This document shows positions 2,486-61,377 of a stretch of DNA of 64,000 bases, piece after piece (position 1 is the first letter of the stretch; each line of letters begins with the position of its first letter). Both the position numbers and the translations under genes were made by a program. Source of the stretch: Candidatus Omnitrophota bacterium (lineage in GTDB: Bacteria; Omnitrophota; Gorgyraeia; Duberdicusellales; 4484-171); contig JAFGQU010000023.1 of assembly GCA_016935525.1 (NCBI GenBank), positions 897-64,896 on the forward strand, written 5' to 3'. The notes under the pieces are model-generated. The model saw only the letters and a program-made list of their open reading frames with translations, was not told the origin of the DNA and did no database searches.

Positions 2486-2677
2486 TCAATGCAAAACCCT
2501 AAGGGCTTTTCCCCTATTGTTTTTCTCATTGCTAAATGTGAATTGCTAATTGACCATTGATAATTTCCTATTCCCCCTAATCGCTGTCCGCTTTTTCACA
2601 TGTGACGTGTGTCGTGCAACGTGTGACTGCCTGCATAGCAGGCATGCGTGTGACTATGTGACCTTGTGTCGTGTGAC
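2486..2677. repeat. composite dispersed repeat, copy 1 (ATCAATGCAAAA / TTGCTAAATGTGAATTGCTAATTGA / CCTATTCCCCCTAATCGCT module followed by inverted GTGTGAC module with TGCCTGCATAGCAGGCA hairpin)
   Basis: Homologous to 6054-6240, 41395-41625 and 61191-61377 by direct comparison. Confidence 0.7.
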
Positions 2678-2749
2678 CTCTATAAAAATAGGTTGTCCTT
2701 GCCATTTTTATCATATAAAATGGTTTAACAATTAAATTAGGGAGATAGC

Positions 2750-3625
2750 ATGAAAATACATTTTAGATTATTGTTCGGTGTTCTGATCACCTTCTTGATC
2801 GCCTCGTTTTCTCTTCTTTACGCCCAGGAAAACATCACGATCACTACCTTCTACCCCTCCCCTTACGGGGTATATAAAGATCTTGAAACCGAAGTCCTGC
2901 ATGTCAATCCCCGCAAGGAACCTCCCTGTGAATGTATCCCTGATAATAACGGGATAATGTATTATCAGGAAGCCGTCGAAGAAAATGATGAAAACGTCTT
3001 CTATTTCTGTAACGGCGAAGAATGGATACCGATAGGATATGAAGAAGAACTGCCCGAAACCGTGCTCGGCGGGTACTATATGGGAGATGCCGAGCAATTT
3101 CTTTATGCGACCGGATCGGGAAATACCCGGATGGAGAATATCTGGCAATACGAAAGTTTCGAAGTTCAGAAATATGACCGTATTTCTCCGTTTAAAGATG
3201 AAGGCCCGTTTTTCGGGATGAAAGCGCAGTTCCGAAACATGCCGCGCGGGAACTATCTGTTTGAATGGTCGGCGGACCTCGATGTCGACCAATATCCCGG
3301 GCCGAAAAACAATATAAACAAAGCGTTACAGGCGTCCGACATGAAAGTGCAGATACGGACCGATTCGGGATGGAAGACGCTGGACAGTAGCGAGATATGT
3401 TATGACGAAGACGATAAAGATCTCCCGACCGACCCGTTATGGACGACGCCCGACACGTATTCTACCCATCATATCGAACGAGCGTTCACCATGACCTATG
3501 CCCGGGCAAACGACAAAAAGAATAAGTTCCGGGCATACCGGATAGTCGTGAATAAAAAACGCGGCGAAAATTATATGCGCGTCCGGGTACGTAACGCGCG
3601 GTTATATATTACTTATTTAGAATAA
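2750..3625 (+). CDS. secreted hypothetical protein (signal peptide, cleavage near LLYA-QEN)
   Basis: GGGAG RBS; hydrophobic N-terminus; no recognisable domain. Confidence 0.55.
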   Translation: MKIHFRLLFGVLITFLIASFSLLYAQENITITTFYPSPYGVYKDLETEVLHVNPRKEPPCECIPDNNGIMYYQEAVEENDENVFYFCNGEEWIPIGYEEELPETVLGGYYMGDAEQFLYATGSGNTRMENIWQYESFEVQKYDRISPFKDEGPFFGMKAQFRNMPRGNYLFEWSADLDVDQYPGPKNNINKALQASDMKVQIRTDSGWKTLDSSEICYDEDDKDLPTDPLWTTPDTYSTHHIERAFTMTYARANDKKNKFRAYRIVVNKKRGENYMRVRVRNARLYITYLE

Positions 3626-3636
3626 ACACAAAGCCC

Positions 3637-4050
3637 ATGGCTGAACCACAGATCACCGACAAATATTCCGATCAGTTACGGTTACTTTCGATATTCCATT
3701 ATATCTTCGGGGCGCTTACGGGCTTTATGTCCTGTATCCCGATAATCCATATCGTATTAGGTATCGTGTTTGTGATGTTCCCCGATAAGATGGTCTCCGA
3801 ATCCGGCGAAACCATGCCTGCGTTTTTCGGCTGGATATTCGTGATCGCCGGGGCCCTCGCGATGGCCGCGGGCTGGGCGTTTTCGGTATGCGCGATACTT
3901 GCCGGCCGGTATCTCGTGCGGCGCAGGAAACATCTGTTCTGTATAATCGTTGCCGCGATAAGCTGTTTATTCTTCCCGTTAGGTACGGTCCTGGGAGTAT
4001 TCACTTTGATCATCATCACCAAACCGGAAGTAAAAGCGTTATTCAACTAA
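3637..4050 (+). CDS. small integral membrane protein (about 4 TM), hypothetical
   Basis: 12 nt after the previous stop; hydrophobic segments throughout. Confidence 0.55.
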   Translation: MAEPQITDKYSDQLRLLSIFHYIFGALTGFMSCIPIIHIVLGIVFVMFPDKMVSESGETMPAFFGWIFVIAGALAMAAGWAFSVCAILAGRYLVRRRKHLFCIIVAAISCLFFPLGTVLGVFTLIIITKPEVKALFN

Positions 4051-4083
4051 ACCTTAACCTTTTTTTATCCTTCAGACTATTCT

Positions 4084-6048
4084 ATGCCTACTGATTTCAA
4101 ACTCGACCCGTTCCAGGAACAGGCTATCCAATCGGCATATGACGGAAAATCCGTGATCGTCTCGGCCCCCACCGGCGCCGGTAAGACCCTGATCGCCGAA
4201 CGGATAATCGAACATTGTTTAGAACATAATCAGGGCGTGATCTATACCGCGCCGATCAAAGCGTTAAGTAACCAGAAGTTCCGTAACTTCTCCGCCCAAT
4301 ATCCCGAAAATACCGGTATCCTTACCGGCGACGTCAGTATCAATCCGCAGGCGCCGATCTTGATCATGACTACGGAAATATTCCGTAACTCGTTACTCAC
4401 CGATCCCGAACGGATGAAAGGGCGTAAATGGGTCATTTTCGATGAGATCCATTATCTCGACGATATCGAGCGCGGTACGGTATGGGAAGAATCGCTTATT
4501 CTCCTGCCTCCCCACATGCATATCCTCGCGTTAAGCGCGACGATCCCGAATATGACCCAGCTGGTAAACTGGATATCGTCTATTCACGAGTTCCCGGTAA
4601 AGACGATCCTGGAAGATAACCGGCCGGTACCATTACATTTCTTTTACCAATGTAATAACGAGTTTTTTTCAAACCTCCACGCCCTGAAAAAATCGCAACA
4701 CCTTCAGGAACAGCTGAAAAACCGCGATTTCAGCCGCCGGCCCCGTAGAGAAGAAGAAAACGAGTCCCGGGTTAAACCGAACCGGCTGAACACGCTCATC
4801 AAACATCTTCAGATCCGTGACGCCCTGCCCTGTATGTATTTCAGTTTTTCCCGCCGGCGGTGCCAGGAATTAGCGAACGATATCCGTTCTTTCAATTTTT
4901 TAACGCATCAGGAACGCGAGGTGATCGAAAAAAAATTCAACGATCTGGTCGATCTGTTCAATATTTCCGGCGACCCGTATGTCGACGAACTGTACCCGCT
5001 CATCCGTCACGGTATCGCCTACCATCATGCCGGGCTGCTGCCCACGATGAAAGAGATCATCGAACGGTTATTCACGACCGGCCTGATCAAATGTATTTTT
5101 ACGACCGAAACCTTCGCCTTAGGCATCAACATGCCGGCCCGTACGGTAGTGTTCGATACGTTATTCAAATATTACGGCCGGTTTTACCGGTACCTGAAAA
5201 CACGGGATTTCTATCAGATCGCCGGCCGTGCCGGCCGGCGCGGCATCGATACTCAGGGAAACATCCAGATCCGTATCGATCCCAACAAAGTGGATATTTC
5301 CACGCTTAACCATATCATCTACGGCGAGTACGAACCGATATCCAGCCAGTTTAACAGCGCGTACGCCACGATCCTTAACCTTTACTCGCTGATGGGAGAA
5401 AAACTGTTCGATATTTATCCGTTATCGTTTCATTTTTACCAATCAAACGATGTCGAAAAGAAACAGGCGTTAAACCTTATGCGCCGTAAACTGAACATCT
5501 TGAAATCGTTAGGGTATATCGTAAAAGGCGGCCTAAGCCAGAAAGCCGAACTTGCCGCGAAAGTGTACAGTTACGAACTGCAGGTCGGCGAACTGTACGC
5601 GCGTAACCATCTGGAAAAACTTGACCCGGAAGAATTGTTTGTCGTGTTATGCTGTCTGGTATACGAACCGCGTAAAGGCGAACGCAAACCAAAACTGAGT
5701 AAACCGGTCCGTAAACTGCAGAAACATCTGCAGATGTTCATGCGCGATATCCATAAAGTCGAACGGTACCACCGGATCTTCCCGCAAAGTAAAGAGTTCT
5801 ATTTCCATATTGCCGAGGCCGCGAGAGCCTGGTTTCACGGTACGGATTTTTTTAAACTCTACAAATATTGCAGTATCGATGAAGGCGAGATCGTCCGGAA
5901 CTTCCGGATGACTCATCAGATGCTGAGAGAGATGAAGTTCTGCGACGTGTTGACCGACGAGTTCAAAGAAAAGATAAAGATCTGCATGAAAAACGTCAAC
6001 CGTGACGTCGTCGACGCCGAAAAACAACTGCGCCAGCCGATCGACTAG
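4084..6048 (+). CDS. Ski2-like superfamily 2 DEAD/DEAH-box helicase (HelY/Mtr4-like core; DSHCT-like C-terminus)
   Basis: Walker A APTGAGKT, DEIH box, SAT, Ski2-signature GIAYHHAGLLPTMKEIIERLFTTGLIKCIFTTETFALGINMPARTVVF, QIAGRAGRRG. Confidence 0.85.
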   Translation: MPTDFKLDPFQEQAIQSAYDGKSVIVSAPTGAGKTLIAERIIEHCLEHNQGVIYTAPIKALSNQKFRNFSAQYPENTGILTGDVSINPQAPILIMTTEIFRNSLLTDPERMKGRKWVIFDEIHYLDDIERGTVWEESLILLPPHMHILALSATIPNMTQLVNWISSIHEFPVKTILEDNRPVPLHFFYQCNNEFFSNLHALKKSQHLQEQLKNRDFSRRPRREEENESRVKPNRLNTLIKHLQIRDALPCMYFSFSRRRCQELANDIRSFNFLTHQEREVIEKKFNDLVDLFNISGDPYVDELYPLIRHGIAYHHAGLLPTMKEIIERLFTTGLIKCIFTTETFALGINMPARTVVFDTLFKYYGRFYRYLKTRDFYQIAGRAGRRGIDTQGNIQIRIDPNKVDISTLNHIIYGEYEPISSQFNSAYATILNLYSLMGEKLFDIYPLSFHFYQSNDVEKKQALNLMRRKLNILKSLGYIVKGGLSQKAELAAKVYSYELQVGELYARNHLEKLDPEELFVVLCCLVYEPRKGERKPKLSKPVRKLQKHLQMFMRDIHKVERYHRIFPQSKEFYFHIAEAARAWFHGTDFFKLYKYCSIDEGEIVRNFRMTHQMLREMKFCDVLTDEFKEKIKICMKNVNRDVVDAEKQLRQPID

Positions 6049-6053
6049 CTCAC

Positions 6054-6240
6054 GTCACACGACACCCGTCACATAGTCACACGTTTAAGATAAATGATCA
6101 ATGCAAAATTAGCATTTAGCAATTATCAATTAGAGCCCTATTTCTCTTATCGTACTTCTCATTGCTAAATGTTAATTGCTAATTGAAAATTGTTAATTTT
6201 CTTTATTCTATCCGCTCACCGCTATACGCTATTCGCTATT
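6054..6240. repeat. composite dispersed repeat, copy 2 (GTCACACGACACCCGTCACATAGTCACACGT + ATCAATGCAAAATTAGCATTTAGCAATTATCA + TTGCTAAATGTTAATTGCTAATTGA + CCGCTATACGCTATTCGCTAT)
   Basis: Direct comparison with the other copies; overlaps the stop codon of the nitroreductase gene. Confidence 0.7.
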
Positions 6241-6751
6241 TGGGCCAGCGTTCTTCAAATACAATCTCTGAAAGAGAGAGACGGGTCTTCTCTTTGGGTG
6301 AGTCGGCCGGATATCCCAGCGTGAGCAGTTCGACTACCCGGACATCTTCGGGAATATCCAGTATTTTTTTCACCTGTTCTTCATAAAAGGCGCCGATCCA
6401 GCAACTCCCTATCCCCTCCTCGATCGCGAGGAGAGTGATATGGTCGATAATGATCGCCAGATCCAGCGGATAGCATTTCTGGCTGCAGGTCATGACATGA
6501 TGGTCGGTGACCGCGCAACAGGCAAGCACGACCGGCGCGCCGGCTACAAACTGCTGGTTACGGGCGGCCTCGGCCAATTTCATCTTTTTCGTGTTATCCC
6601 GCACCGCGACAAACCGCCATTCCTGCCGGTTCGATGCCGACGGAGCCAACCGCGCGGTATCCAGTATTTTTTTAAGCACGGTTTCTTCGATATCCCGCCC
6701 GCTATAGGCCCGTACGCTTCTTCTTTGTATTACGGCATCAGTTACGTTCAT
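6236..6751 (-). CDS. nitroreductase family protein
   Basis: RRSVRAY..LAPSASNRQEW motif typical of NADH/FMN nitroreductases. Confidence 0.8.
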   Translation of the reverse strand: MNVTDAVIQRRSVRAYSGRDIEETVLKKILDTARLAPSASNRQEWRFVAVRDNTKKMKLAEAARNQQFVAGAPVVLACCAVTDHHVMTCSQKCYPLDLAIIIDHITLLAIEEGIGSCWIGAFYEEQVKKILDIPEDVRVVELLTLGYPADSPKEKTRLSLSEIVFEERWPK

Positions 6752-6774
6752 TATTTCATTCTCCTTATTTTCAG

Positions 6775-6835
6775 GTCACACGACACACGTGTTTTTTTCT
6801 TTACTTGTGACATGTGACCTTGTGACTTTGTGACC
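6775..6835. repeat. GTCACACGACAC / GTGAC-rich module (solo copy) in the glgC-nitroreductase intercistronic spacer
   Basis: GTCACACGACACACGTG followed by T7 then GTGACATGTGACCTTGTGACTTTGTGACC. Confidence 0.6.
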
Positions 6836-6848
6836 TTTACTTCTGTAA

Positions 6849-8066
6849 TCAGAAGTAGTATGATTTCCGTGAGCCGCGGCGAACAACGACTATGCCGGAC
6901 GGGTCCTGATGATACGGCCCGCACCCGGCGGTGCCGCCGATATGGGTACCTTTCTCGATAGTATTGAACCGGTCGACTATGGTACGGGTGATTTTAGATG
7001 CCGCTCCGATATGGGTAAAATCAAGGATGATCGAATCTTCGATATGACAACCGGGCTCTATCGTGACCGACCGGCCGAGAATAGAATTTTTTACCGTTGA
7101 CGATACGATCTTTGAACCTTCACAGATCATCGAGTTGGTTATATTCGAGTTATCGATCAATGCCGGCGGACAATGAAGCCGTACCCCGTAGATCGGCCAG
7201 TCCCGGTTATTCAGGTCCAGCCGCGGTTCTCCCGTTAAAAGGTCCATATGCGCTTTCCAGTAACTTTCGATCGTTCCGACATCTTTCCAATAAAAACGTT
7301 CTTCATAAGGTTTCAGCCCGGGGATAAGGTTACAAGAACAATCATACGCGTATATGTTCGCTCCTCTTTTCAGGAGCGCCGGGATCACGTCTTTTCCGAA
7401 ATCGTGCGAGGTCTCTTTATGCGCGTTTTCTTCCAATGCCTGGACCAGGACATCGGTATTGAAAATATAGTTTCCCATCGATACGTAAAAATTCCCTTCA
7501 CCCAATTTTTCGGGCTTCTCTTTAAAACTTATCACTTGGGCCTTACGGTCGGTTTCCAGGACCCCGAAATGGCGTTCTTCGCCTTTGGTCAGGGGAACCG
7601 TCGCGATGGTAAGGTCCGCCCGGCGGGCATAATGAGATTCGATCATTTGACGGATATCCATACGGTACACGTGGTCGCCGCTGAATACCGCGACGATCGT
7701 CGGTTTGAAATCGTAGATAAGGTTGATGTTCTGGTATACCGAATCGGCGGTACCGCGGTACCATTCTTTTACATCTTCCATCCTCATCTGCGGCGGGACG
7801 ACGGTTAAAAAATGTTTTGACGGCATACCCGCGACACTCCAGGCGGTACGGATATGTTCGATTAACGATTGCGATTTATACTGTACCAGAAGATAGATGG
7901 AATAGATCCCGGAATTCACGAAATTACTTAACGCGAAATCGATGATCCGGTATTTACCGCCGAACGGAACCGACGGTTTGGTGCGTTCGGCCGTGAGCGG
8001 GTCAAGACGGGTACCTTTGCCTCCGGCAAGGACTAACGCGAGGATGTTACTTTCAGGAATGTTCAT
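6849..8066 (-). CDS. glgC: glucose-1-phosphate adenylyltransferase
   Basis: LAGGKGTRL..PFGGKYRIIDF and full-length GlgC architecture. Confidence 0.9.
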   Translation of the reverse strand: MNIPESNILALVLAGGKGTRLDPLTAERTKPSVPFGGKYRIIDFALSNFVNSGIYSIYLLVQYKSQSLIEHIRTAWSVAGMPSKHFLTVVPPQMRMEDVKEWYRGTADSVYQNINLIYDFKPTIVAVFSGDHVYRMDIRQMIESHYARRADLTIATVPLTKGEERHFGVLETDRKAQVISFKEKPEKLGEGNFYVSMGNYIFNTDVLVQALEENAHKETSHDFGKDVIPALLKRGANIYAYDCSCNLIPGLKPYEERFYWKDVGTIESYWKAHMDLLTGEPRLDLNNRDWPIYGVRLHCPPALIDNSNITNSMICEGSKIVSSTVKNSILGRSVTIEPGCHIEDSIILDFTHIGAASKITRTIVDRFNTIEKGTHIGGTAGCGPYHQDPSGIVVVRRGSRKSYYF

Positions 8067-8074
8067 AAAAAGGT

Positions 8075-9262
8075 TTACAACTCCCGGATCTCTCCGGCTT
8101 TTACCAACGCGACTTTAGTGATCCACGGCCCGATAAGTTCAAACAGTACCGTCGTAGCTATTGTAACATTTAATATCTGGTCACCCCAGACATTATTTAG
8201 ATTATGTTTGGCGACCAGGGCGCAGGCGATCGCCACACCCGCCTGAGGCAAAAGCGCGATACCCATATACCGCTGCATGATGCCACCGGAACCGGCGGCC
8301 TTGGCTCCGATAAACGCGCCGAATATTTTACCGAACGTACGCAAAAGAATAAACGCCGCCGAGATCCCGAGCGCGACGCCTATCCCTTTAAAACTTAACC
8401 CCACGCCCGCAAGCACAAAGAAGATGATATAGAAGGGCGAATCGACCTCGCGTAACGATTCGAAAAAAGTAAAACTCATCTTATTGGTATTGGCCAGTGT
8501 CGCTCCGAACACCATACAGGATAACAGTACCGAAAGGTGCAGGGTGATCGCGATACCGATGGTAAGAAACAGAAACGCGAACGTATAGATCAGGCGGTCT
8601 TTCGCGCTGTTAATCAGATGAGAGATCCGGTTAAACAATAATGTCGCAGATAACCCCACCAGAGCTGACGCGATAATATCAAAAAACGCTTTACCCAGGT
8701 CCGTAAATATCCCGATAAACGACGGAACTCCGCCTAACAGCGACGTCGCCATCGAAAGTGAAAATCCGAATATGATCAGGCCCCAGGCATCGTCGATCGC
8801 GACGACTCCCAGTAACGTATCGGTAAATTCCCCTTTACTGCGGTATTCCTGCGCGACGGTAACGGTACCGGCCGGATCGGTGGATGAGGCGATGGCGCCA
8901 TAGACCAAAGCTACGGCAAACGGGAGACGGAAAAAATACCATAACCCGACAGTCACCAGTACCCAGGGGACCAGCGACGCGTTGATCGAGATGTTCACGA
9001 CGGAGCGGCCGACTTGCCGGATATTTCCCAGATAAAAGCTTTCACCCAGGATAAACGCGATCATTCCCAGCACTATATCCGAAAATACTTCCGACGCGCT
9101 TAAAAGTTCGCCGGAGATAATATTGAACAGGTCCGGAGAAAGCAGGATGCCTAACGCCACGTACGCGGTGATCGACGGGATCTTGAATTTCCTGACGAAT
9201 CGCCCGCCGAAAAACCCGGCGATAAATATGACCCCCAGACTCAAAATAGGATCATGTATCAT
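8075..9262 (-). CDS. cation:proton antiporter (CPA family Na+/H+ exchanger)
   Basis: Polytopic membrane protein with NhaP/Kef-like motifs; start moved to internal ATG (MIHDPILS) to avoid overlapping the CBS gene. Confidence 0.7.
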   Translation of the reverse strand: MIHDPILSLGVIFIAGFFGGRFVRKFKIPSITAYVALGILLSPDLFNIISGELLSASEVFSDIVLGMIAFILGESFYLGNIRQVGRSVVNISINASLVPWVLVTVGLWYFFRLPFAVALVYGAIASSTDPAGTVTVAQEYRSKGEFTDTLLGVVAIDDAWGLIIFGFSLSMATSLLGGVPSFIGIFTDLGKAFFDIIASALVGLSATLLFNRISHLINSAKDRLIYTFAFLFLTIGIAITLHLSVLLSCMVFGATLANTNKMSFTFFESLREVDSPFYIIFFVLAGVGLSFKGIGVALGISAAFILLRTFGKIFGAFIGAKAAGSGGIMQRYMGIALLPQAGVAIACALVAKHNLNNVWGDQILNVTIATTVLFELIGPWITKVALVKAGEIREL

Positions 9263-9275
9263 ATCTTGCTCAACG

Positions 9276-9743
9276 TTACGCGATACCTTTTTCCTTAAAC
9301 ATGCGCCAGATAATATCGAAAATGCCGACAATACCGAGGATCTTACCTCCGCTGTCGACTACCGCCAGACGTTCTTTTTGATGCATCCGCATGTGTTTGT
9401 ATGCCTGTTCGATAGTCTGCGTCTCTTTCGCCACGACGAAGTGTTTATCCATGATGTCATCGACGATAATCAGGTCGCCCATCGAGGGTACCACGTCAAG
9501 ATCGAATACATCCTGATCCATCTCCATAAACGGCAGGGAACGAAACAGTTTTGCCTGTTGCGGACGCAATATATCGAGAAGATTTTCCGGATAGACCATC
9601 CCAATAAGGATATCTTGATCATCGACAACAGGAATGAGCGGGTGGGTATGGAATTGTTTAAAAATATCCAAAAGAGCGCGTAATGAAGTAGAACGTTTCA
9701 CTTTGATGACGCTGGTGTTCATCACCTCTTTCACATTGACCAT
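9276..9743 (-). CDS. CBS-domain pair protein
   Basis: Two CBS motifs (VMNTSVIKVKRSTSL.., ..LAVVDSGGKILGIV). Confidence 0.7.
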   Translation of the reverse strand: MVNVKEVMNTSVIKVKRSTSLRALLDIFKQFHTHPLIPVVDDQDILIGMVYPENLLDILRPQQAKLFRSLPFMEMDQDVFDLDVVPSMGDLIIVDDIMDKHFVVAKETQTIEQAYKHMRMHQKERLAVVDSGGKILGIVGIFDIIWRMFKEKGIA

Positions 9744-9775
9744 AACGGTATCCTCCGGTTAAGGGGTATGTATTA

Positions 9776-10231
9776 TCATTTCTCGAACTGACGGATGATC
9801 TGGATCACCTGGTCCGCCGATTCCGCGGACACCAGCGCCTCACGGAACGCGCTGTTCATCAGCAGTTTGGATAATTCGGCAAGGACTCTTAAATACAGGT
9901 TCAGTTCGCGCGGGTCGGCACCCATGAGGAAGATAAGGTTCACCTTTTCCCCGTCAAGCGCGTTAAAATCGATACCTTCTTTTGATTTGCCGAATCCGAT
10001 CACGAACCCTTTTATACTCGCGGTACGGGCGTGAGGGATAGCGACTTTATGGCCGATACCGGTGGAACCGAGAGATTCCCGTTCCAGGATATCTTCGATA
10101 AACTTAGCTTTATCGGCGACTTTTCCGCTTGAAGTAAGTTCTTCGGCGATCTCTCTCACCGCGGCCTCTTTATCGGCGGCGTTAAGGTCCATCACACAAT
10201 AGTTTTTCTTGAGGTATTCGGAAACTTTCAT
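9776..10231 (-). CDS. ptsN: PTS EIIA-Ntr-like nitrogen regulatory protein (fructose-type IIA)
   Basis: GIGHKVAIPHART active-site His motif. Confidence 0.7.
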   Translation of the reverse strand: MKVSEYLKKNYCVMDLNAADKEAAVREIAEELTSSGKVADKAKFIEDILERESLGSTGIGHKVAIPHARTASIKGFVIGFGKSKEGIDFNALDGEKVNLIFLMGADPRELNLYLRVLAELSKLLMNSAFREALVSAESADQVIQIIRQFEK

Positions 10232-10262
10232 CGTCTATACTCCTTATCTTGATTGGCTCCGG

Positions 10263-10934
10263 TCACGCGTACGTTTTTATATTCTGTAATAACCCGTAAC
10301 AGAGCAGTTTGTCGCCTTCTTCCAGCACGTCATCGGCATGAGGGAACGCGATCAATCTATTTTCTCTTTGAATAGAAAGGACCAGGATATCTTTTTTGAT
10401 AAACCCGGCCGCCGAAAGGCTTTGGCCGAGCTCTTCGGTATCTTTAGTCATCGTAAGCTGAGCGATCCCGTACCCTTTAGGCAGACGGAACAGTTCTTCC
10501 AGGGTCTGCTGTTCCACCAGCCCTTTGGCGACGATCCGTTTCTCGATGAACCGGTTCAGCCAGACACTGAACTCGCGTAATGTGGTCGCTTTGTAGAGTA
10601 ACGCGATAGATAAGATCAACAGTAACGCTTTCCACAGGTCGTTTAAGATATTATCTTTCCCGAATGAAACGAATAAGCCGGCGATGACCGATACGAACCC
10701 GATCCGGCCTAAGATCATCAACACGATCACGGTCTTACGCCGGATATCGTCTTCCAGGACCGGTTCGGCCTCTTTAGTGGTAAACCCGGTCCCGGTAAAC
10801 GCCGATACCGATTGAAACCACGCGGTCTCCTCATCCAGACCGGTCATCTTAAGGACAACCGTGGCGATGCGCACGATGAGCACGAACAGGATGACGATAA
10901 TGATCAGCGGGATGACGGTAGAGATGATCCCCAT
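10263..10934 (-). CDS. membrane protein with C-terminal TrkA-C (RCK_C)-like domain
   Basis: 3-4 N-terminal TM helices then soluble domain ending ..EEGDKLLCYG. Confidence 0.5.
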   Translation of the reverse strand: MGIISTVIPLIIIVILFVLIVRIATVVLKMTGLDEETAWFQSVSAFTGTGFTTKEAEPVLEDDIRRKTVIVLMILGRIGFVSVIAGLFVSFGKDNILNDLWKALLLILSIALLYKATTLREFSVWLNRFIEKRIVAKGLVEQQTLEELFRLPKGYGIAQLTMTKDTEELGQSLSAAGFIKKDILVLSIQRENRLIAFPHADDVLEEGDKLLCYGLLQNIKTYA

Positions 10935-10936
10935 AG

Positions 10937-11239
10937 TTATTTAAGCCTTAACGCCAGTTCGACGAGCGTCTGGACAATAAAATTTTTCGCAAACAAAATG
11001 ATCAAAAACGCGATCAACGGAGAAAGGTCGATACCGATTTTCATATTGACCGGCAATATCCTTCTGATCGGATACAGGATCGGTTCGGTCGTCTTATTAA
11101 GGAACTGTACGATCGGGTTATACGGGTCCGGGTTTACCCAGCTGATCAGGGCGCGGATAAGGATCAACCAGTACAGGATGGTCAATACCACGTCCAGTAT
11201 CTTCGCCAGCGAAATAAGGAGATTGCTCAACACAAACAT
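10937..11239 (-). CDS. yggT: YggT family membrane protein
   Basis: LILIRALISWVNPDPYNPIVQFL signature. Confidence 0.75.
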   Translation of the reverse strand: MFVLSNLLISLAKILDVVLTILYWLILIRALISWVNPDPYNPIVQFLNKTTEPILYPIRRILPVNMKIGIDLSPLIAFLIILFAKNFIVQTLVELALRLK

Positions 11240-11242
11240 ATT

Positions 11243-11332
11243 TTAGTCTCTAGTCTCTGGTTTCCGGTTTTTAGTCTAACCGCTAGCCGCTAAACGCTTA
11301 CCGCTCGCTATGAGCGTATCGTACGCGAATAG
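11243..11332. repeat. word-like tandem repeats (GTCTCTAGTCTCTGG; CCGCTAGCCGCTAAACGCTTACCGCTCGCTATGAGCG)
   Basis: Read directly; contains TAGTCTAACCGCTA, the reverse complement of the 16-mer AATAGCGGTTAGACTA found at 241 and 31203. Confidence 0.6.
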
Positions 11333-11333
11333 C

Positions 11334-12218
11334 TCATTGATAAAGATTATAAGTAACTAACGACGTATCGGCAATGAATTTTTTTGCCTGCGCATATGAG
11401 TTTACCCCCCGGGTAAGTATACAAATAATATAATCCCCTTTGGGAGAAAATACAATACCCGCGTCATGGACCACTCCCCGTTCAAGGCCGGTCTTATGGG
11501 CGACCGTCACCTCATTCGGCAAATACCGCGGGAGCCGGTCGTTGATCTTCTGACTTTTGAGGTAACTGATCATCTCGCCGGACGCGGCTTCATCGACGAG
11601 TTCCTTACGGTACATCCGCTCAAGCAGCGACGAAATATCTCTCGCCGAGGTATAATTTTCAACCCCTTTATCCCGTAAAGAGAAATCCATCATCTTCCTT
11701 TTCAGTACCGTATCTTTAAGGCCTAATTCAGTAAACCCGTTGTTTAAATATTCGTAGCCCAGGAGGCTGATGACCTTATTGGTCGCGGTATTATCGCTGG
11801 ACGCGATCATGATCTTGAGCAGCTCTCTTAAAGAGAACGCGGCCGGCATTTTCATCGCTTTGATGATCCCTGAGCCGCCGGCGATATCTTTACGTCGTAC
11901 CACCACTTTCTCATCGAGCGATAATTTCCCTTCATCGACCGCTTTAAAGACGACCGCCAGTACCGGCACTTTCATCAGGCTCGCGGCGGGAAACAGTTCT
12001 TTTTCGTTCTTGTCCCATTGAGTATAAGGGAACCGCATGTCTTTTATCACACAGGCAAATTCTCCCTGTTGATGTTCGGCAATACCGCTGATGTTTTTTT
12101 CTAAGGAACGGACGAACTTTTTCTGTTGGGAAATAAAGATAAACCCGGCCAGTGCCGCAATCGCCAGGATACAAAAAAAAGTAACGAGTAGTTTTTTAGA
12201 AAAACGGGGTTTTATCAT
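11334..12218 (-). CDS. class A beta-lactamase-like serine hydrolase
   Basis: S-x-x-K (ASLMK), SDN (SSDNTA) and KTG (HKTGL) motifs; N-terminal TM/signal. Confidence 0.7.
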   Translation of the reverse strand: MIKPRFSKKLLVTFFCILAIAALAGFIFISQQKKFVRSLEKNISGIAEHQQGEFACVIKDMRFPYTQWDKNEKELFPAASLMKVPVLAVVFKAVDEGKLSLDEKVVVRRKDIAGGSGIIKAMKMPAAFSLRELLKIMIASSDNTATNKVISLLGYEYLNNGFTELGLKDTVLKRKMMDFSLRDKGVENYTSARDISSLLERMYRKELVDEAASGEMISYLKSQKINDRLPRYLPNEVTVAHKTGLERGVVHDAGIVFSPKGDYIICILTRGVNSYAQAKKFIADTSLVTYNLYQ

Positions 12219-12259
12219 GATCTTAACCGGGATAACGGTTTTTACATAATCGCGTTTTT

Positions 12260-13774
12260 TCAGGAAGAGATCATCCGGTCTTTAGGATCACTCTTCCATC
12301 CATGAGCCGCGACGATAATCGCGGCAAACAAAGTATACATCAGCCAATCCCGTCCGATAAGGACGATTGCCAGCCACGAATATCCTCCGTAAGGAGTAGT
12401 CAACTCATCACGTAACGTGGAGATCAATAATCCGGTCAAGACCAACGGGGTAACCACTTTGATCGCCCAATCCCACCAGGTACGCAAGCCCCAGGCACTG
12501 TAATGGTTCACATGTTGACGCATCCGCGCGGCGCCAAAGACCCATCCGATGATCACGCATTCCAATATCGCGGCGATCACCAGTCCATATTGCGTCAGGA
12601 AATGGTCGACAATATCCAGCCAGTACAGCCCGGCCTGGGTCGCAAAGATCATCGATCCTAGGAATCCGAACACACATAATACCGATACCACCGCGCCGCG
12701 GGAATAATGGAACTTATCGATGACCGCGGAGGTGAACGCCTCCAGTATCGAGATCGCCGATGAAAGCCCGGCGATCACCAGGATCCCGAAAAAGATAACG
12801 CCGAACAGACGGGGAAAATACGGCAGCAGGCTGATCGCTTTGGGATAGGCGACAAACGCCAGGCCGATCGACTGGCTGACGACATCGCCGACCTCTTTAG
12901 AAGTCGTCTGGGCCATATATCCTAATATAGAAAACACGCCTAACCCCGCAAACAGGGAAAACAGGCAATTAGTGAAACTGATCACGCAGGAATCTTTGAC
13001 GATCTCGCTTTTACGCGGCAGATACGAAGCATAGGCGATCATGATTCCGAATCCCAGGCTTAGCGTAAAAAATATCTGACTGAACGCGTCCATCCATACC
13101 TGGATATCACTGAGGCGCGAGAAATCAGGCCGCAGATACACAAGGAGCCCTTCTCGCGCGCCGGGCAGGCCCAGGCTCCATACTACGATCACGCCCGTCA
13201 AAATGAAGAGTATCGGCATGAATATCTTATTCGCCCGTTCCAGGCCTTTTTGTACTCCTTTATAGACGATCAACCAGCTTAACAGCCAGACCAGCAGCAG
13301 GGAAAACAAAATCGGTGTGCGTAATATCCCGATAGAAAAGGGGGTTTCCCCTACCATCAGGAATTTTTGAAAGAAAAACGTATCGGGATCGGCGCCCCAG
13401 CCCAGGTTAAACGAAAAGAAGAAGAAACTTACGCACCAGGCAATCACTACCGAATAGTAAAGGACGATACCGAACATGACAAAAATCACCTGCCACCATC
13501 CCAGCCATTCCGCCCTCCGGGAGACACCCGCCAGGCTCGCCGGAGACGAACCGCGCATCTTGTGTCCCAGTCCTATCTCTAATATCATCAGCGGTATCCC
13601 CACCACGATAAGCGCGACGAAATAAGGGATAAGAAAGGCGCCGCCCCCGTTTTTATAACACAGGTACGGGAACCGCCAGATATTGCCCAGGCCTATCGCC
13701 GAACCGATCGCGGTAAACAGAAACCCGATATGCGATTTCCATTGCGGCCGGTGATGGGCAAGATGTTCGTTCAT
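12260..13774 (-). CDS. sodium-dependent transporter, neurotransmitter:sodium symporter (SNF) family
   Basis: GSAIGLGNIWRFPYLCYKNGGGAFLIPY N-terminal signature. Confidence 0.85.
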   Translation of the reverse strand: MNEHLAHHRPQWKSHIGFLFTAIGSAIGLGNIWRFPYLCYKNGGGAFLIPYFVALIVVGIPLMILEIGLGHKMRGSSPASLAGVSRRAEWLGWWQVIFVMFGIVLYYSVVIAWCVSFFFFSFNLGWGADPDTFFFQKFLMVGETPFSIGILRTPILFSLLLVWLLSWLIVYKGVQKGLERANKIFMPILFILTGVIVVWSLGLPGAREGLLVYLRPDFSRLSDIQVWMDAFSQIFFTLSLGFGIMIAYASYLPRKSEIVKDSCVISFTNCLFSLFAGLGVFSILGYMAQTTSKEVGDVVSQSIGLAFVAYPKAISLLPYFPRLFGVIFFGILVIAGLSSAISILEAFTSAVIDKFHYSRGAVVSVLCVFGFLGSMIFATQAGLYWLDIVDHFLTQYGLVIAAILECVIIGWVFGAARMRQHVNHYSAWGLRTWWDWAIKVVTPLVLTGLLISTLRDELTTPYGGYSWLAIVLIGRDWLMYTLFAAIIVAAHGWKSDPKDRMISS

Positions 13775-14015
13775 ATCTATCCTCTTATTCTTTAATCACT
13801 GTCATCAGGCATCCCGATATATCGGGACGCCTGTTCGTAAAAAATTATATCAAAAACCCCGGGATTGTAAATATATAGGGATAACTGGAAGGGTTTCCCC
13901 GTTGTCCCGTTCGCCCGTTATCCCGTTAGAGATTCAGTATTATATCCCCGCTCACTGTTCTTTACTATTTGAACGGGCTGACGCGAGCACGGGAGAACAC
14001 GCGAACTTTAATAAA

Positions 14016-14201: not shown

Positions 14202-14281
14202 ATTTCCTCCTTCAATGAGCAGACGATCTACGGAACAAAGTGATCGTAAATCGTAGTCCGTAAGGACGTCTGCGAATTGAA

Positions 14282-14313
14282 CCCTTGACACTTTTGCACA
14301 AAAGCGTCAAGGG
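14282..14313. promoter_or_regulatory. 32 bp near-perfect palindrome CCCTTGACACTTTTGCACAAAAGCGTCAAGGG (copy A of the duplicated leader module)
   Basis: Read directly; second copy at 31820-31851. Confidence 0.5.
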
Positions 14314-15019: not shown

Positions 15020-15028
15020 AGGTATATC

Positions 15029-51430: not shown

Positions 51431-52178
51431 CATATCACACCTCGTAGGTGTGATATGCGGTTAAAACCATTTAATCAAAAAGAAAATCTTTTATCTTCGC
51501 TAATTGACGCTGATAAGAGATCCTTCCTTCTACAAACTGGCGATATCTTGTCGGCTTGATTGCCAATAAATCCTGATACTGGCAGATCTTCTCTTTCTGA
51601 AATTTACGGAAAACATATTCTCGATAAGAAGAAGCAGACCAATCTTCTGGATTATTGATAAATCCAGCAGTGACCGGATTAAGATGAACATAGCGAGTCA
51701 GATGCAATAATTGTTCGTCACTCTCTACAAGCACCCTTTTAAACCTTCCTTCCCACAACGGCCCTTTTCGTTTATATTTAGTGTTGAAATACTTAGAATA
51801 GCTATTTAGTATCTTACCCATAAATGCTGAGATACCATGTTCTTTTAATTGTTTGAGAATAAAATGCAAGTGAGTCGGCATAATACAGTAAGCAATAATA
51901 TTTACAATTTTCTCTTCGGGATTAGTTGACTCGATCCCCCCTACAAGGCTACTTTTCTGTCGCGTAAACCGATCTCTATAAGAAAACCTTATATTGATAC
52001 TATTCTGATAATATAAAATCAATCCTTCTATACGCATATAATCACGCAGATTGTTAAATATCCTAAAACCAGCAATGCTTTTTGTAAAAACGTGATATAC
52101 GCCCTCATTCACTAAAGACATATTTACTCCTTTCCTTTTCCCTCCCCTATATCACACCTACGAGGTGTGATATAGGGG
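51431..52178 (-). mobile_element. IS200/IS605-like or RAYT element: HUH Y1 transposase gene bracketed by 27 bp and 35 bp palindromic hairpins (CATATCACACCTCGTAGGTGTGATATG; CCCCTATATCACACCTACGAGGTGTGATATAGGGG)
   Basis: Hairpins read directly, 14 nt and 22 nt from the gene ends; shared 25 bp core. Confidence 0.65.
51471..52121 (-). CDS. IS200-like / REP-associated tyrosine transposase (HUH Y1 family)
   Basis: HUH motif CIMPTHLHFIL and catalytic Tyr region GPLWEGRFKRVLV..LTRYVHLNPV; AAGGAG RBS. Confidence 0.7.
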   Translation of the reverse strand: MSLVNEGVYHVFTKSIAGFRIFNNLRDYMRIEGLILYYQNSINIRFSYRDRFTRQKSSLVGGIESTNPEEKIVNIIAYCIMPTHLHFILKQLKEHGISAFMGKILNSYSKYFNTKYKRKGPLWEGRFKRVLVESDEQLLHLTRYVHLNPVTAGFINNPEDWSASSYREYVFRKFQKEKICQYQDLLAIKPTRYRQFVEGRISYQRQLAKIKDFLFD

Positions 52179-53225: not shown

Positions 53226-54557
53226 ATGGCTGAATCCCGAAAAAAATTCTTTGTCATAGATACCAACGTCATCCTCCACGATTCTTCCTGTATCTACCAA
53301 TTTGCCGATAATGACGTCGTCATCCCCATCCCGGTCCTTGAAGAACTCGACCGGTTCAAAAAAGGGAACGAATTGATCAACGTCCATGCCCGGGGATTTT
53401 TACGGGCAATCGACGCGTTAAGTGCCGACAAACTTTTCGGGGAAGGGGTACCGATCGGGCCCGATAAAGGCAATATCATCATCAAAGTCGATCAGGAATT
53501 CTCAAACGAATTCGCGTTTAATTTTTCTCCCCAGAATCCCGATCACCATATCCTCCACATCGCCTACCGGCTCTCTCAGGACCATCCCGGCACGCCGGTG
53601 ATCCTGGTCACCAAAGACCTGAATCTGCGGATGAAAGCGAAATCCATGGGCCTGCATGCCGGAGATTATACGACCGATCATATCAAAGATATTTCCGAAC
53701 TTTACCTGGGGTACCGTATTGAAGAGAATGTCTCCGCCGAGATCATCGCTCAACTCTACAAAAAACCGTTTATGGTACCCGTAAAAGACGTCCCTTTAAA
53801 TAAAGACCTTCTTCCTAACGAATTTATTATTTTACGTAACGGGAAACAATCGGCTCTGGGAATATTCCATGCCCCGACCCAAATGATCAAACGGGTCCAG
53901 AAAACCGATGCCTACGGGATTTCTCCCCGTAATGCCGAACAGACGTTCGCGTTATATGCGTTACTTAATACCGATATCCGCCTGGTAAGTATTTCGGGAA
54001 AAGCCGGGACCGGGAAGACTCTTCTGGCGCTGGCAGCGGCGCTGGCGAACCAGAAAAACTATCGTCAGATATTTATCGCCCGGCCGGTAGTGCCGTTAAG
54101 CAACAAAGACCTGGGATTTTTACCCGGAGATATTCAGTCCAAGATGGAACCGTATATGCAACCGCTGTATGATAACCTGGGCGTGATCCAGCATAAATAT
54201 TTTTCTTCGGCCTCGAAAGACCGTCAGATCCAGAAACTGCTTGAATCCGAACAACTGCTCATCACCCCGCTCGCGTATATCCGCGGCAGAAGCCTGGTCG
54301 ACGTCTTTTTCATTGTCGATGAAGCCCAGAACCTTACTCCTCATGAGATCAAAACGATCATCACCCGAGCCGGCGAGAATACAAAGATGATATTTACCGG
54401 CGATATTTTTCAGATCGACCATCCTTATCTTAACACGTTCTCAAACGGCCTAAGTTACCTTATGGCCAAGATGAAGGGGCAGGAACTTTACACGCACATC
54501 AATCTGGAAAAAGGCGAACGTTCGGAACTGGCGGAACTGGCAAGTAATTTACTTTAA
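53226..54557 (+). CDS. PhoH2-type protein: N-terminal PIN domain fused to PhoH-like ATPase (YlaK-like)
   Basis: PIN acidic residues (VIDTNV.., ..VLEELD) plus Walker A GKAGTGKT and VDEAQN. Confidence 0.85.
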   Translation: MAESRKKFFVIDTNVILHDSSCIYQFADNDVVIPIPVLEELDRFKKGNELINVHARGFLRAIDALSADKLFGEGVPIGPDKGNIIIKVDQEFSNEFAFNFSPQNPDHHILHIAYRLSQDHPGTPVILVTKDLNLRMKAKSMGLHAGDYTTDHIKDISELYLGYRIEENVSAEIIAQLYKKPFMVPVKDVPLNKDLLPNEFIILRNGKQSALGIFHAPTQMIKRVQKTDAYGISPRNAEQTFALYALLNTDIRLVSISGKAGTGKTLLALAAALANQKNYRQIFIARPVVPLSNKDLGFLPGDIQSKMEPYMQPLYDNLGVIQHKYFSSASKDRQIQKLLESEQLLITPLAYIRGRSLVDVFFIVDEAQNLTPHEIKTIITRAGENTKMIFTGDIFQIDHPYLNTFSNGLSYLMAKMKGQELYTHINLEKGERSELAELASNLL

Positions 54558-54582: not shown

Positions 54583-54612
54583 GTCACATAGACACACGTC
54601 ACATGTCACACG
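54583..54612. repeat. GTCACATAGACACACGTCACATGTCACACG module (solo copy)
   Basis: Read directly; followed at 54640-54700 by TTTAGAGTTTAGTG word repeats. Confidence 0.55.
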
Positions 54613-54755
54613 ATTTAAAATCCTAACCATAAGAACAGATATCTGGTTTGAATTTAGAGCTTTAGATTTGTTTAGAGTTTAGTGCTTAGATTTTAGGATT
54701 TTACTCTATCCGCTACGTGAACGGAGTACTCCAGGATAGAAGCTGTAGACTTATG

Positions 54756-60185: not shown

Positions 60186-60239
60186 CAGTGTTCTCCCGTA
60201 AAAGCATTATAACTTAAAATCCCGGATATGTTCATCACC

Positions 60240-60929
60240 TTATTTTACAGAATACCCTTTGAGCTCTAACGAATACCCTAATTTACCTAATCCGCGGATT
60301 CTAAGCGGAATACGCCGGGTGTCACTGCTGATCCAGGCTTCGAAGGTGTTGCCCGAACTTTTAAAATGGTAGGCATCGAATTTTCCGGCGGGCACGGTGA
60401 CCACCTCACGCCCCTCAAACTGCACATTGAAATCTTTAGTCAATCGCACCGGCATCTCCCACCCGTCAGGGAAATCCTGATACCCGCGTAACAGAAACGG
60501 CAACAAAACGGCATTATGTATCGGGCCGGTTTTTTTAAGTGTACGTTCGGAGATCTTCTTATCGCCCCGGTATTTTGTGACGGTCAAAATGAAATGTTCC
60601 TGATCGTATTCTTCGATTATCTTTTCTTTCTTGAGCCACAGCGATACCTCACGGTCGACGTAGAGCGGCAACATAGTCTCCTGGTCACTGTAGATATTTT
60701 CGGTATCATGAAATCCCAGGATATCCGCCTTAAAAACGGTCAGATGCATCTTTTTACCGGCTCGCTCGACGATCCCGCGGTCATGATACACCGCGCTCCC
60801 GGCCGGTTTTATATCGTATACAAGTTTTTCTCCTTTACGCATACCCGCTTCGTCGGATGTGCGGGTACAACCGGAAAGGAAACCTGCGGATAAAATAATC
60901 CATATCGCTAGGGGGATGAATCGTCTCAT
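60240..60929 (-). CDS. lipoprotein, hypothetical (DUF3108-like)
   Basis: Start at internal ATG giving lipobox LSGC. Confidence 0.45.
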   Translation of the reverse strand: MRRFIPLAIWIILSAGFLSGCTRTSDEAGMRKGEKLVYDIKPAGSAVYHDRGIVERAGKKMHLTVFKADILGFHDTENIYSDQETMLPLYVDREVSLWLKKEKIIEEYDQEHFILTVTKYRGDKKISERTLKKTGPIHNAVLLPFLLRGYQDFPDGWEMPVRLTKDFNVQFEGREVVTVPAGKFDAYHFKSSGNTFEAWISSDTRRIPLRIRGLGKLGYSLELKGYSVK

Positions 60930-61190
60930 GAAAATATACGGTTCCTGTCCTTTTCTGCGTATTATCACACACATTAAAAAAAAGTGCAACCGATAACTGG
61001 ATAGTCGTTAGTCAATAGTCGACAGTCGATGGTCTTCAGTCGAGTTAGCTCGTTTCCCCGTTCTGCCCGTTCAAATAGCGGAGGGAAACAGGGTGCAGGG
61101 TATCGGGTATAGGGTGTCGGGGAGAACGCAACGCGCAACGCGGAATCTCCGAACATAGAGTACAGTGGGGAACGGATAGAGTGAAATAGA

Positions 61191-61377
61191 AAATTAGCAA
61201 TGGCCAATCAACAACGAGCATTTATCAATGAAAGAAAGGATAAGAAGGAAACCTCAGGATTTTAAACTGATAATTGCTAAATGCTAATTTTGCATTGGTC
61301 ATTTATATTAGACATATGACTATGTGACCTGCCCGCTCCTGACTTACAGGAGGGCAGGCGGGCGTGTGTCGTGTGAC
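61191..61377. repeat. composite dispersed repeat, copy 4 (reverse orientation; hairpin insert CCTGCCCGCTCCTG..CAGGAGGGCAGG)
   Basis: Reverse complement gives AATGACCAATGCAAAATTAGCATTTAGCAATTATCAG, near-identical to copy 2. Confidence 0.7.

Follow-up and report, generated by a model that had tools for sequence, protein, structure and literature searches.

Degenerate tandem heptanucleotides, which belong to several families and are dispersed in intergenic DNA, have been known as short tandemly repeated repetitive (STRR) sequences since 1990, and neither their origin nor their role has been explained. They were reportedly described in that year by Mazel et al. in heterocystous cyanobacteria. For Nostoc punctiforme, Elhai et al. 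are said to have reported in 2008 very small hairpin-associated repeats, the small dispersed repeats (SDRs), which have a size of 21-27 nt and nest in other repeats, including tandem heptamer arrays. In E. coli, repetitive extragenic palindromes (REPs) at intercistronic junctions and 3' ends form stem-loops that act as barriers to 3' exonucleases, as weak terminators and as translation decouplers. The present analysis concerns a composite intergenic repeat of about 190 bp in a 64,000-nt stretch of DNA from a Candidatus Omnitrophota bacterium (contig JAFGQU010000023.1, positions 897 to 64,896), referred to here as the window. The definitions of REPs and of bacterial interspersed mosaic elements (BIMEs) were taken from PMC3333891, and the described REP superfamilies are defined by GTAG or CGTC tags located 5' of the palindrome (PMC3333891, PMC3733652). 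Heptamer direct repeats of the sequence TAACTGA have been described for Beggiatoaceae, Cyanobacteria and Bacteroidetes (MacGregor 2015, PMC4679880). A full-text literature search gave no description of such repeats in Omnitrophota. It was found that the repeat is a real family not produced by chance, and that it is best described as a cassette which recurs within a larger system of heptamer-array hairpins; these hairpins are polar, are specific to one clade and contain nested GC-rich hairpins.

In the window, the motif GTCACACGACAC has seven exact matches, while 0.07 are expected from shuffled sequences, and GTCACATAGTCACACGT has eight matches at up to three mismatches, again with 0.07 expected. 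The motifs lie far above chance, and the original prediction of a mosaic, modular intergenic repeat with BIME-like behaviour holds. Of the four copies that it had named, three were shown by reading and by alignment to be mutually colinear, with 86-91% identity across blocks of 64-71 nt and 75-84% in their right halves. The first of these, c2 (6054-6240, plus strand), consists of a GTCACA array (6054-6084), an AT-rich hairpin with a left arm at 6093-6123, a loop at 6124-6160 and a right arm at 6161-6191, a U-rich stretch (6192-6206) and a tail array of YCGCTAT units (6207-6240). It sets in 5 nt past the stop codon that ends a helicase gene of the same orientation (4084-6048), and occupies a convergent intergenic region. 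Copy c3 (41395-41625, plus strand) begins with GTCACACGACAC (41395-41406), followed by a GC-rich double-hairpin insert, i1 (41407-41469), by GTCACATAGTCACACGT (41471-41487), by the AT-rich hairpin (arms at about 41503-41543 and 41564-41608) and by the tail, which extends until 41625. Copy c4 (61180-61377, minus strand) contains GTCACACGACAC at 61377-61366, the insert i3 at 61365-61329, GTCACATAGTCATATGT at 61328-61312, the AT-rich hairpin at 61300-61205 and the tail at 61204-61180; its onset lies 12 nt past the stop codon of the co-oriented gene 61390-62829.

The remaining copy, c1 (2486-2677), had to be divided into two adjacent elements. Its left part (2486-2590, plus strand) is a decayed composite which has retained the right arm (2528-2562) and the tail (2566-2590), but only 12 nt of the 32-nt core; CCCTAAGGGC stands in place of the left arm, and there is no GTCACA array on the 5' side. 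The other part (2596-2677, plus strand) is a separate array in the TGTGAC orientation with the insert i2 (2628-2644, TGCCTGCATAGCAGGCA). This array is located 72 nt upstream of the start of the gene 2750-3625 and belongs to the 5' side of that gene. A similar correction applies to the copies of the GTCACAC module that were thought to stand alone. The one at 33536-33566 (minus strand, GTCACACGACACAAGGTCACATAGTCACACGT) is indeed a solo array, which fills the 37-nt junction of two minus-strand genes. The one at 6775, however, belongs to an inverted pair of arrays, and the one at 54583 is the beginning of a composite variant with another central hairpin (54583-54716, plus strand). This variant contains a GTCACA array (54583-54612), an inner cassette (about 54613-54700) and a tail, CTCTATCCGCTAC, in which CTATCCGCT is present; unlike in c2-c4, its inner hairpin is formed by heptamer arrays of AAATCC and TTTAGAG-GGATTTT. 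It sets in 25 nt past the stop codon of the co-oriented gene 53226-54557. At 25352-25401 (plus strand), GTCACACGACAC is followed by the insert i4 (25364-25385, CCCGTGAGCTTACGCAACGGGG) and by CACGCACGACACACGT, at the left edge of an intergenic region and adjoining the start of a minus-strand gene.

The family extends beyond the window, so that a restriction to this stretch, which would have refuted it, does not hold. The Logan contig L134, from the sample of the window (SRR13394437), contains two more composites, and very likely originates from the same genome. Furthermore, a full composite was identified in the metagenome-assembled genome (MAG) CAZABB01 (L013:2002-2155), which begins at the stop codon of gltD, has its modules in the order of c2 and matches this copy at 76% identity over 170-181 nt. 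The order of GTCACA array, hairpin and YCGCTAT array is thus found in six composites, namely c2, c3, c4, 54583-54716, L013:2002-2155 and L134:11414-11570, and five of the six, with the exception of c3, begin 0-25 nt past the stop codon of a co-oriented gene. Two forms of the pyrimidine-rich tail occur, CCTATTCCCCTAATCGCTATC in c1 and c3 and TCTATCCGCTCACCGCTATACGCTAT in c2, c4, L013 and L134. Two forms of the inner cassette were also distinguished, AATTAGC/GCTAATT in c2, c3, c4 and L013, and AAATCC/GGATTT with TTTAGAG in 54583-54716 and L134:11414-11570. A seventh copy, L134:9879-10000, is reversed and its GTCACA part is missing, and L003:1522-1624 represents the frame of the composite without the large inner hairpin. 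These data showed that the composite of 190 bp is an intergenic cassette with a direction and a modular build, which belongs to one Omnitrophota clade. At two places, array sequence has become part of the 3' end of a gene: in L134 (9852-9878), the tail array of the reversed copy provides the final nine codons, together with the stop codon, of the upstream gene for a DHODB-like protein, and the end of gltD in L013 (1975-2001, …RTQVT*) resembles a degenerate GTCACA array.

Every module of the composite was found to be a degenerate tandem array of units of 7 nt, at times 8 nt, which the original prediction had missed. Module by module, the units are GTCACAC, GACACCC, GTCACAT and AGTCACAC; AATTAGC, ATTTAGC and AATTATC; ATTGCTA, AATGTTA, ATTGCTA and ATTGAAA; and CCGCTCA, CCGCTAT, ACGCTAT and TCGCTAT. 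The GTCACA arrays of the composites are C/A-rich, with GTCACA being followed by C, T, TA, AA or AG. When a period was counted wherever at least 15 of 21 positions matched at the given offset, period 7 covered 647 of the 8,804 intergenic bases of the window (7.4%), versus 10 of about 55,200 coding bases (0.02%). Among the other intergenic periods, 14 is a harmonic, 8 and 11 reach about 1%, and all others are close to zero. Tandem Repeats Finder at a low threshold identified about 25 arrays of period 7 or 14 among 55 rows, nearly all of them intergenic. Because most of the larger intergenic regions of the window hold such arrays, often as inverted pairs, the modules are a genome-wide feature; the modules of the composite are shown to be instances of a genome-wide mosaic vocabulary, in which tandem arrays of 7-8 nt make up 7-10% of the intergenic DNA.

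At least eight word families are present in the 64 kb: GTCACAY, AATTAGC, YCGCTAT, AGTCTCT, AAATCCG, AATAACC, AGTCCAT/GACTATT and CCCGTTN. An 11-mer unit, GAAATACAGTA, is present besides these heptamer families. A very common layout is an array followed, across a spacer, by its own reverse complement. Examples are the AGTCTCT/AGAGACT arrays at 26170-26252, which form an intergenic hairpin (z of -3.7; folding z-scores are relative to shuffled sequences), the AAATCCG array at 27354-27480 (plus strand) with its inverted partner GTTTCGGATTTAGTGCTTCGGATTTC at 27521-27545, the AATAACC array and inverted GGTTATT/GGTGATT array at 39018-39200, which flank the GC-rich palindrome CCCCGGGAATTCTCCGAATTCCATGGGG, and the inverted pair GTCACACGACACACGTG ... 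TTGTGACATGTGACCTTGTGACTTTGTGACC at 6775-6841, which fills the junction of two minus-strand genes. An AGTCTCT array followed by a TAACCGC array is located at 11240-11308 (plus strand), and the same order is present, reverse-complemented, at 243-278. An array of AGTCCAT, GGTCCGT and GACTATT units is found at 21662-21739 (plus strand), with the reverse complement of this family at 60998-61036. The GC-rich palindrome CCCRGGAATTCTCCGAATTCCAYGGG occurs twice (25595-25625 and 39117-39146), the second copy being the centre of the AATAACC/GGTTATT array hairpin; it is another family of nested elements. Arrays of 11-nt units (GAAATACAGTA and TGTATTTCTA) with inverted copies are located at 32790-32884 and 34344-34455, around the gene pair 32885-34343. 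They are combined with a recurring motif of the form ATATGTTCGCTATCGCTCACGAAA, and related copies (CATATGTCGTCCCGAAAGGGTCA) are present at 70-92 and 26770-26826.

The window therefore contains what characterizes STRR sequences, namely tandem heptanucleotides of several families in intergenic DNA. In contrast to these, the host belongs to the Omnitrophota, the words are not known to occur among the STRR sequences, and the arrays are organized in inverted pairs of fixed polarity at gene edges and in conserved multi-module composites. The TAACTGA repeats are similar in that heptamer direct repeats, mixed with other heptamers, are concentrated just upstream of start codons and are missing from the orthologous intergenic regions of close relatives, and a post-transcriptional role was proposed for them as well (PMC4679880). 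However, they are dominated by a single word, comprise one indirect repeat versus 169 direct sets, and contain neither nested GC hairpins nor composites (PMC4679880).

The arrangement of the GTCACA arrays relative to genes follows a strict polarity. In all 12 intergenic regions that contain both orientations, two in the window and ten in CAZABB01, GWCACA is the left and TGTGWC the right member (sign test, p = 0.0005); the mirror arrangement was found in none of the 12, though it would give an equally good hairpin. Within the window, the left gene edge is the nearer one for 15 of 15 forward units and the right edge for 17 of 19 reverse units, and the distance of the arrays to the predicted gene boundaries is mostly 25 nt or less. 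The layout 5'-GWCACA...TGTGWC-3' is its own reverse complement, so that a transcript contains GUCACA where it leaves a gene and UGUGAC where it enters one. The 3' arm stops just short of the Shine-Dalgarno sequence, as in ...GTGTGAC-CTGAAAATAAGGAGAATGAAATA-ATG at 6752-6775. A general rule that the C-rich arm is always 5' was rejected, since its overall p of 0.005 changed to 0.15 once the GTCACA arrays were excluded. Polarity is thus claimed for the GTCACA arrays, and for the AATTAGC hairpin in a descriptive sense. Sites of the CRP type, TGTGA-N6-TCACA, were also ruled out, because the half-sites are in the reverse order.

Folding of 14 regions with paired arrays or composites gave z-scores of -1.4 to -6.5, with 12 of the 14 at -2.0 or below. 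The AT-rich hairpin was present in every fold (z of -2.0, -3.9, -4.1 and -5.1), and the inverted GTCACA/TGTGAC pairs fold into long imperfect hairpins (z of -1.4 to -6.5, most at -2.0 or below); for 6775-6841, the hairpin in the sense of the transcript has -22 kcal/mol and a z of -3.7. The solo GTCACA array, folded as 33527-33580, is less structured than shuffled sequences (z of +1.4). With regard to intrinsic terminators, AUUU(U)C(C/U) directly follows the AT-rich hairpin on its 3' side in six of the six composites that were read, with stems that are GC-poor and a short U-tract, and in L013 and L134 this hairpin is located between the stop codon of gltD and the next promoter. A scan for consensus terminators reported none of these sites within 1-20000, the stretch that it covered. 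At the gathering threshold, tRNA-Pro was the sole Rfam match, and nothing credible was obtained at E <= 1 over c2, c3 and L134.

The GC hairpins that had been noticed within the GTCACAC module were found at 41407-41469 (i1, a 63-nt double hairpin), 61329-61365 (i3) and 25364-25385 (i4), and, in the inverted array, at 2628-2644 (i2). The four hairpins differ from each other and occupy the same register directly after GTCACACGACAC, with i2 at the equivalent position of the inverted array. That they are optional inserts was substantiated in CAZABB01, where three of the four recur independently: i1 in L002, L006, L016 and L021, i2 (of the GCCTGC...GCAGGC type) in six copies, and i3 in L016 and L018. 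The stems vary by compensatory or wobble changes, as in TCCCGC..GCGGGA, TCCCGT..GCGGGA and TCCCGT..ACGGGA for i1, TGCCTGC..GCAGGCA, CGCCTGC..GCAGGCG and ACCTGC..GCAGGT for i2, and TCCTG..CAGGA and TCCCG..CGGGA for i3. Two types of array harbour insert i3, namely GTCACA arrays and, with the insert inverted, a CCGCT tail array; the AAATCCG array of the window is interrupted at 27388-27435 by a relative of i1. Among 16 array-embedded hairpins, 12 are located directly 3' of a GACACA-type unit, which accounts for 27% of the units (binomial p = 8e-5). The GC inserts thus behave like small structured elements inserting at a preferred site, and this preference and the occurrence of i3 and of the i1 relative in other array types indicate that they move independently of the arrays. 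HUH/Y1 systems of the IS200/IS605 type typically favour a short sequence on the 5' side of the insertion point. In comparison to SDRs, which are likewise very small and hairpin-associated, the inserts are GC-rich palindromes of 17-64 nt and apparently unrelated in sequence.

In a scan of 185,579 species-representative genomes for an exact 17-mer, at least 19 matches were identified in CAZABB01 and one in a second MAG, CAYXBX01, both records being titled "uncultured Planctomycetia bacterium"; isolated single matches in four unrelated genomes are consistent with chance. The label of CAZABB01 looks imprecise, and the named homologues of the one protein tested, which is GltD-like, are almost all from Omnitrophota or Omnitrophica. 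The genes of CAZABB01 and of the window have no nucleotide similarity, and the orthologous proteins are 63-75% identical. The same architecture is nevertheless present in CAZABB01, with GTCACA arrays that abut stop and start codons, often as inverted pairs, and the vocabulary of units and its rank order, GTCACATA > GTCACAC > GACACAC / GTCACAAG, are alike in both genomes. The helicase adjacent to c2 is 100% identical to an NCBI protein of a "Candidatus Omnitrophica bacterium" MAG, and the next best homologues are all from Omnitrophota and at most 64% identical. A syntenic Omnitrophota locus, L133 (38% GC, helicase 64% identical), has compact intergenic regions, a weak period-7 signal and no composite. 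A phylum-wide occurrence was therefore ruled out, and the arrays are clade-specific.

A metagenome scan with AAAATNAGCATTTAGCAAT gave 108 matches, most of which represent chance or short arrays only. Stand-alone AT-rich heptamer-array hairpins of the AATTAGC/GCTAATT or CAATGAT/ATCATTG type fill intergenic regions in the contigs L033/L105, L054, L060, L068, L082 and L089, and none of these contigs contains the full composite. The inner cassette is thus more widely distributed than the GTCACA arrays. In the high-GC contigs L027, L079, L094 and L111, short arrays starting with AAAATCAGCATTTAGCAAT abut apparent coding sequence.

Turnover of the arrays was followed in the operon for the DHODB-like protein, GltD and glutamate synthase, which was compared in five Omnitrophota genomes after orthology had been checked. 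The clade was represented by L013 (CAZABB01), L135 (81% identical) and L134 (73% identical), and the outgroups by L136 and L137, in which gltD is 70% identical to that of CAZABB01. In both outgroups the DHODB-like gene and gltD overlap by 4 nt, and the 3' flank of gltD has 11-14 nt. In the clade, the junction of these two genes has 78-122 nt, and its array hairpin differs from genome to genome: GTCACA/TGTGAC in L013, CCCGTT/AACGGG in L135 and a reversed AT-rich composite in L134, with z-scores of -3.8 to -5.1 for the three hairpins. The 3' flank of gltD contains the same outer arrays in L013 and L134 with different inner hairpin cassettes, and in both the composite joins the promoter of the next gene at the same sequence, CGCTGTTTAATAAT..CTTGACA; in L135 this flank has 36 nt and the array is absent. 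Because the junctions are compact in the outgroups and filled in the clade, the arrays would represent derived insertions. As far as these sequences show, the slot stays filled although one sequence family gives way to another, and the inner cassette can be exchanged. A promoter-like element, CTTGACA-N17-TGATATAGT, is conserved upstream of the glutamate synthase gene in L013 (2156-2327), L134 (11571-11731) and L135 (3736-3822), and is accompanied in these three Omnitrophota by a leader hairpin, AGGACAACGACGTCCT, with a T-run. Similar GACGTC hairpins are located upstream of the operon in L136 and L137. An Rfam match to this leader was not found; it may be an uncharacterised nitrogen-related leader.

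A gene for a putative REP-associated tyrosine transposase (RAYT) is located in the window at 51471-52121 (minus strand). It matches Pfam Y1_Tnp (E = 1.4e-8) and NCBIfam REP_Tyr_transpos (E = 2e-18; 66.6 bits, under the 80-bit cut-off), and the motifs HLH (HUH-type) and RYVHLNP (Y) are visible. Perfect inverted copies of a 25-nt palindrome, ATATCACACCTCGTAGGTGTGATAT, flank the gene. The palindrome extends to about 35 nt (CCCCTATATCACACCT-ACG-AGGTGTGATATAGGGG), which gives a REPtron-like unit at 51432-52173. By eye the gene is AT-rich; the 2-kb windows there have 44% GC, versus 44-52% across the whole window. The repeats could accordingly be the REPs, or the hairpin-forming REP doublets (REPINs), of this RAYT, whose Y1 transposase would act in trans, binding and cleaving the modules and hairpins and causing their spread. 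The presence of the gene, the palindromes on both of its sides in REPtron fashion, and GC inserts that are REP-sized palindromes with a preferred short insertion sequence, as is typical of Y1-mobilised elements, are in favour of this. The palindrome, however, has no copy in the window beyond the two flanks of the gene and, across the loci L001-L023, which include about 130 kb of CAZABB01, only a single solo copy, with no RAYT nearby, in CAZABB01 (L005:2262-2300). It is unrelated to i1-i4, and the part that it has in common with the arrays is the hexamer TCACAC, which had been noticed as shared; on both strands of 64 kb, chance alone would produce any given hexamer about 30 times. Furthermore, the solo GTCACA array is neither a palindrome nor does it fold, and the GTAG/CGTC tag is absent 5' of i1-i4 and of the copies, where the left flank is GACAC(A) or CACG/CGCA. 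The proposal that these are REP-type elements of the RAYT in the window therefore finds no support for the arrays, and as a whole it appears decidedly unlikely; for the GC hairpins, some Y1 enzyme could be involved.

With respect to the known mosaic elements, the repeats share with enterobacterial REPs and BIMEs a high copy number, a strictly intergenic location, few module types in recurring orders, inverted pairs that form hairpins with linkers at 3' ends and intercistronic junctions, a module content that varies at orthologous loci, and the property of being targets for further insertions. Among the features that define REPs, many intergenic copies were found, an imperfect palindrome of 20-40 nt is present in the GC inserts i1-i4 only and not in the GTCACA arrays, and a palindrome common to the RAYT flanks and the repeats is absent. 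As in BIMEs, inverted units and a linker form mosaics of few module types, but the units are not REPs: the arms are tandem arrays of 7-8 nt instead of single imperfect palindromes of 30-40 nt with a GTAG/CGTC tag. The RAYT of the window has another cognate palindrome, and the frame of the composite is directional. The comparison to BIMEs thus stood with these differences, while that to miniature inverted-repeat transposable elements (MITEs) did not. Like MITEs, the repeats are short, non-coding, dispersed and in part hairpin-forming; unlike them, the composites have no terminal inverted repeats, target-site duplication or parent insertion sequence, and no direct duplication was found at the flanks of c2, c3, c4 and L013. 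By their defining features, the repeats are accordingly not members of the REPs, BIMEs or MITEs.

The explanation that we consider somewhat more probable than its opposite is a REP/BIME-like, modular palindromic mosaic that is turning over and probably acts as hairpins in intercistronic regions and 3' flanks. Modules would be copied and inserted or replaced as units, with the dynamics of selfish elements of the REP/BIME type: junctions that have no gap in the outgroups would have been invaded, and the inner cassette exchanged while the outer arrays were kept. The number of units would probably be adjusted locally through slippage. Later insertions would enter existing arrays or loops and push the older arms to the edges of the intergenic region, and insertion into existing arrays would account for both nesting and polarity. 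The GC hairpins would probably be mobilised by an enzyme of the HUH/Y1 type acting on single-stranded hairpins, for which the RAYT of the window is not demonstrably responsible. In cis, stem-loops at the RNA level, located past the last gene or in the interval that separates a stop codon from the Shine-Dalgarno sequence downstream of it, would serve as 3'-end barriers or terminators and as translational decouplers. Several observations weigh against this explanation. The GTCACA and YCGCTAT ends are not complementary, so the frame of the composite is not palindromic, and with the orientation of L134:9879-10000 and with c3, which has no co-oriented upstream gene, composites occur in both orientations relative to transcription. 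Across eight copies of the AT-rich hairpin there are zero compensatory pairs, the pairs being either conserved or broken, and therefore selection at the RNA level is not demonstrated; in the GC stems, the asymmetry of G.U versus A.C is 4:1 for the sense strand, from numbers too small for a decision. The arrays could be linked to no transposase, terminal inverted repeat or target-site duplication, insertion polymorphism is inferred across species only, and the gene boundaries are the predictions of a simple open reading frame (ORF) caller.

Other explanations place the function in the arrays themselves. They might be binding platforms of the host, multimeric sites for a protein that reads about 7 nt of DNA or RNA and marks gene boundaries, for which an OB-fold or cold-shock-type, KH or nucleoid protein would be an example, with mobility being secondary. 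The strict polarity relative to gene edges and the conservation of exact words and unit frequencies across two genomes at the protein divergence given above agree with such a role, as does the solo array that is less structured than shuffled sequences, which would be expected of single-strand binding sites. A similar proposal was made for the TAACTGA repeats, with cold-shock proteins as candidate binders (PMC4679880). Yet at least eight unrelated word families coexist in 64 kb and replace one another at the same orthologous junction, which is hard to square with one sequence-specific reader, and there is no identified candidate protein; this explanation is considered unlikely. We regard as quite unlikely an undescribed and domesticated punctuation of gene boundaries in this clade, as opposed to plain selfish DNA, in which words of 7-8 nt in polar arrays would be recognised by heptamer-binding factors and/or form zipper hairpins, insulate neighbouring cistrons and renew themselves. 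GUCACA would then follow stop codons and UGUGAC precede ribosome-binding sites, several word families would be interchangeable, the zipper hairpins would be tolerant of register, and renewal would proceed through site-specific insertion of cassettes into existing arrays. At the other extreme, slippage favouring 7-nt units might build arrays in situ as a mutational by-product that is neither mobile nor functional. In many prokaryotes, heptanucleotides make up the most abundant class of long simple repeats, and slippage was proposed for them (PMC4679880); the arrays described here are degenerate and variable in unit number. Slippage, however, cannot yield colinear multi-module composites of 86-91% identity at four or more loci, the same composite with the same inserts in a second genome, or a fixed polarity and an inverted-pair architecture, so that a by-product is strongly disfavoured and very improbable. 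It is just as improbable that the composites are independently transcribed structured small RNAs or known cis-regulatory RNAs. They fold stably (z of -2.0 to -4.1), and c3 is located apart from any co-oriented upstream gene, but neither an Rfam match, even at E <= 1, nor covariation was found, loops and lengths are variable, the inner hairpin is exchangeable, and most copies start right at a stop codon.

Three features deserve follow-up most, namely the polarity, which is unexplained, the direction of the frame and the turnover within a slot. The rules are unusually clear in this system, with polarity at gene edges, inverted-pair hairpins, conserved cassettes, site-preferring GC hairpins and the replacement of families at an orthologous junction, and they lead to testable predictions on the spread of the repeats and on their effect on transcripts. 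The repeats also have practical consequences: gene callers mis-place starts and stops at them, and they fragment short-read assemblies of the lineage, as indicated by the Logan contig L001 (window 2650-6119), which ends inside c2, and by the short contig L132. The latter is limited to the nitroreductase gene adjacent to c2 and a part of the gene that follows.

Two further features of the window were noticed. In the ORF of 1056 amino acids at 27905-31075, the match to EF-G is limited to residues 361-1050, and the stretch of 360 codons before it represents either an N-terminal extension of an unusual kind or the artefact of a missing stop codon, possibly hiding a separate upstream gene. Two minus-strand genes have 5' leaders (14205-14385 and 31756-31925) that consist of a repeat of about 180 nt with 81% identity. 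This repeat holds a palindrome, CCCTTGAC..GTCAAGGG, and a second hairpin, ACAACTTAT..ATAAGTTGT, and could be a shared regulatory leader.

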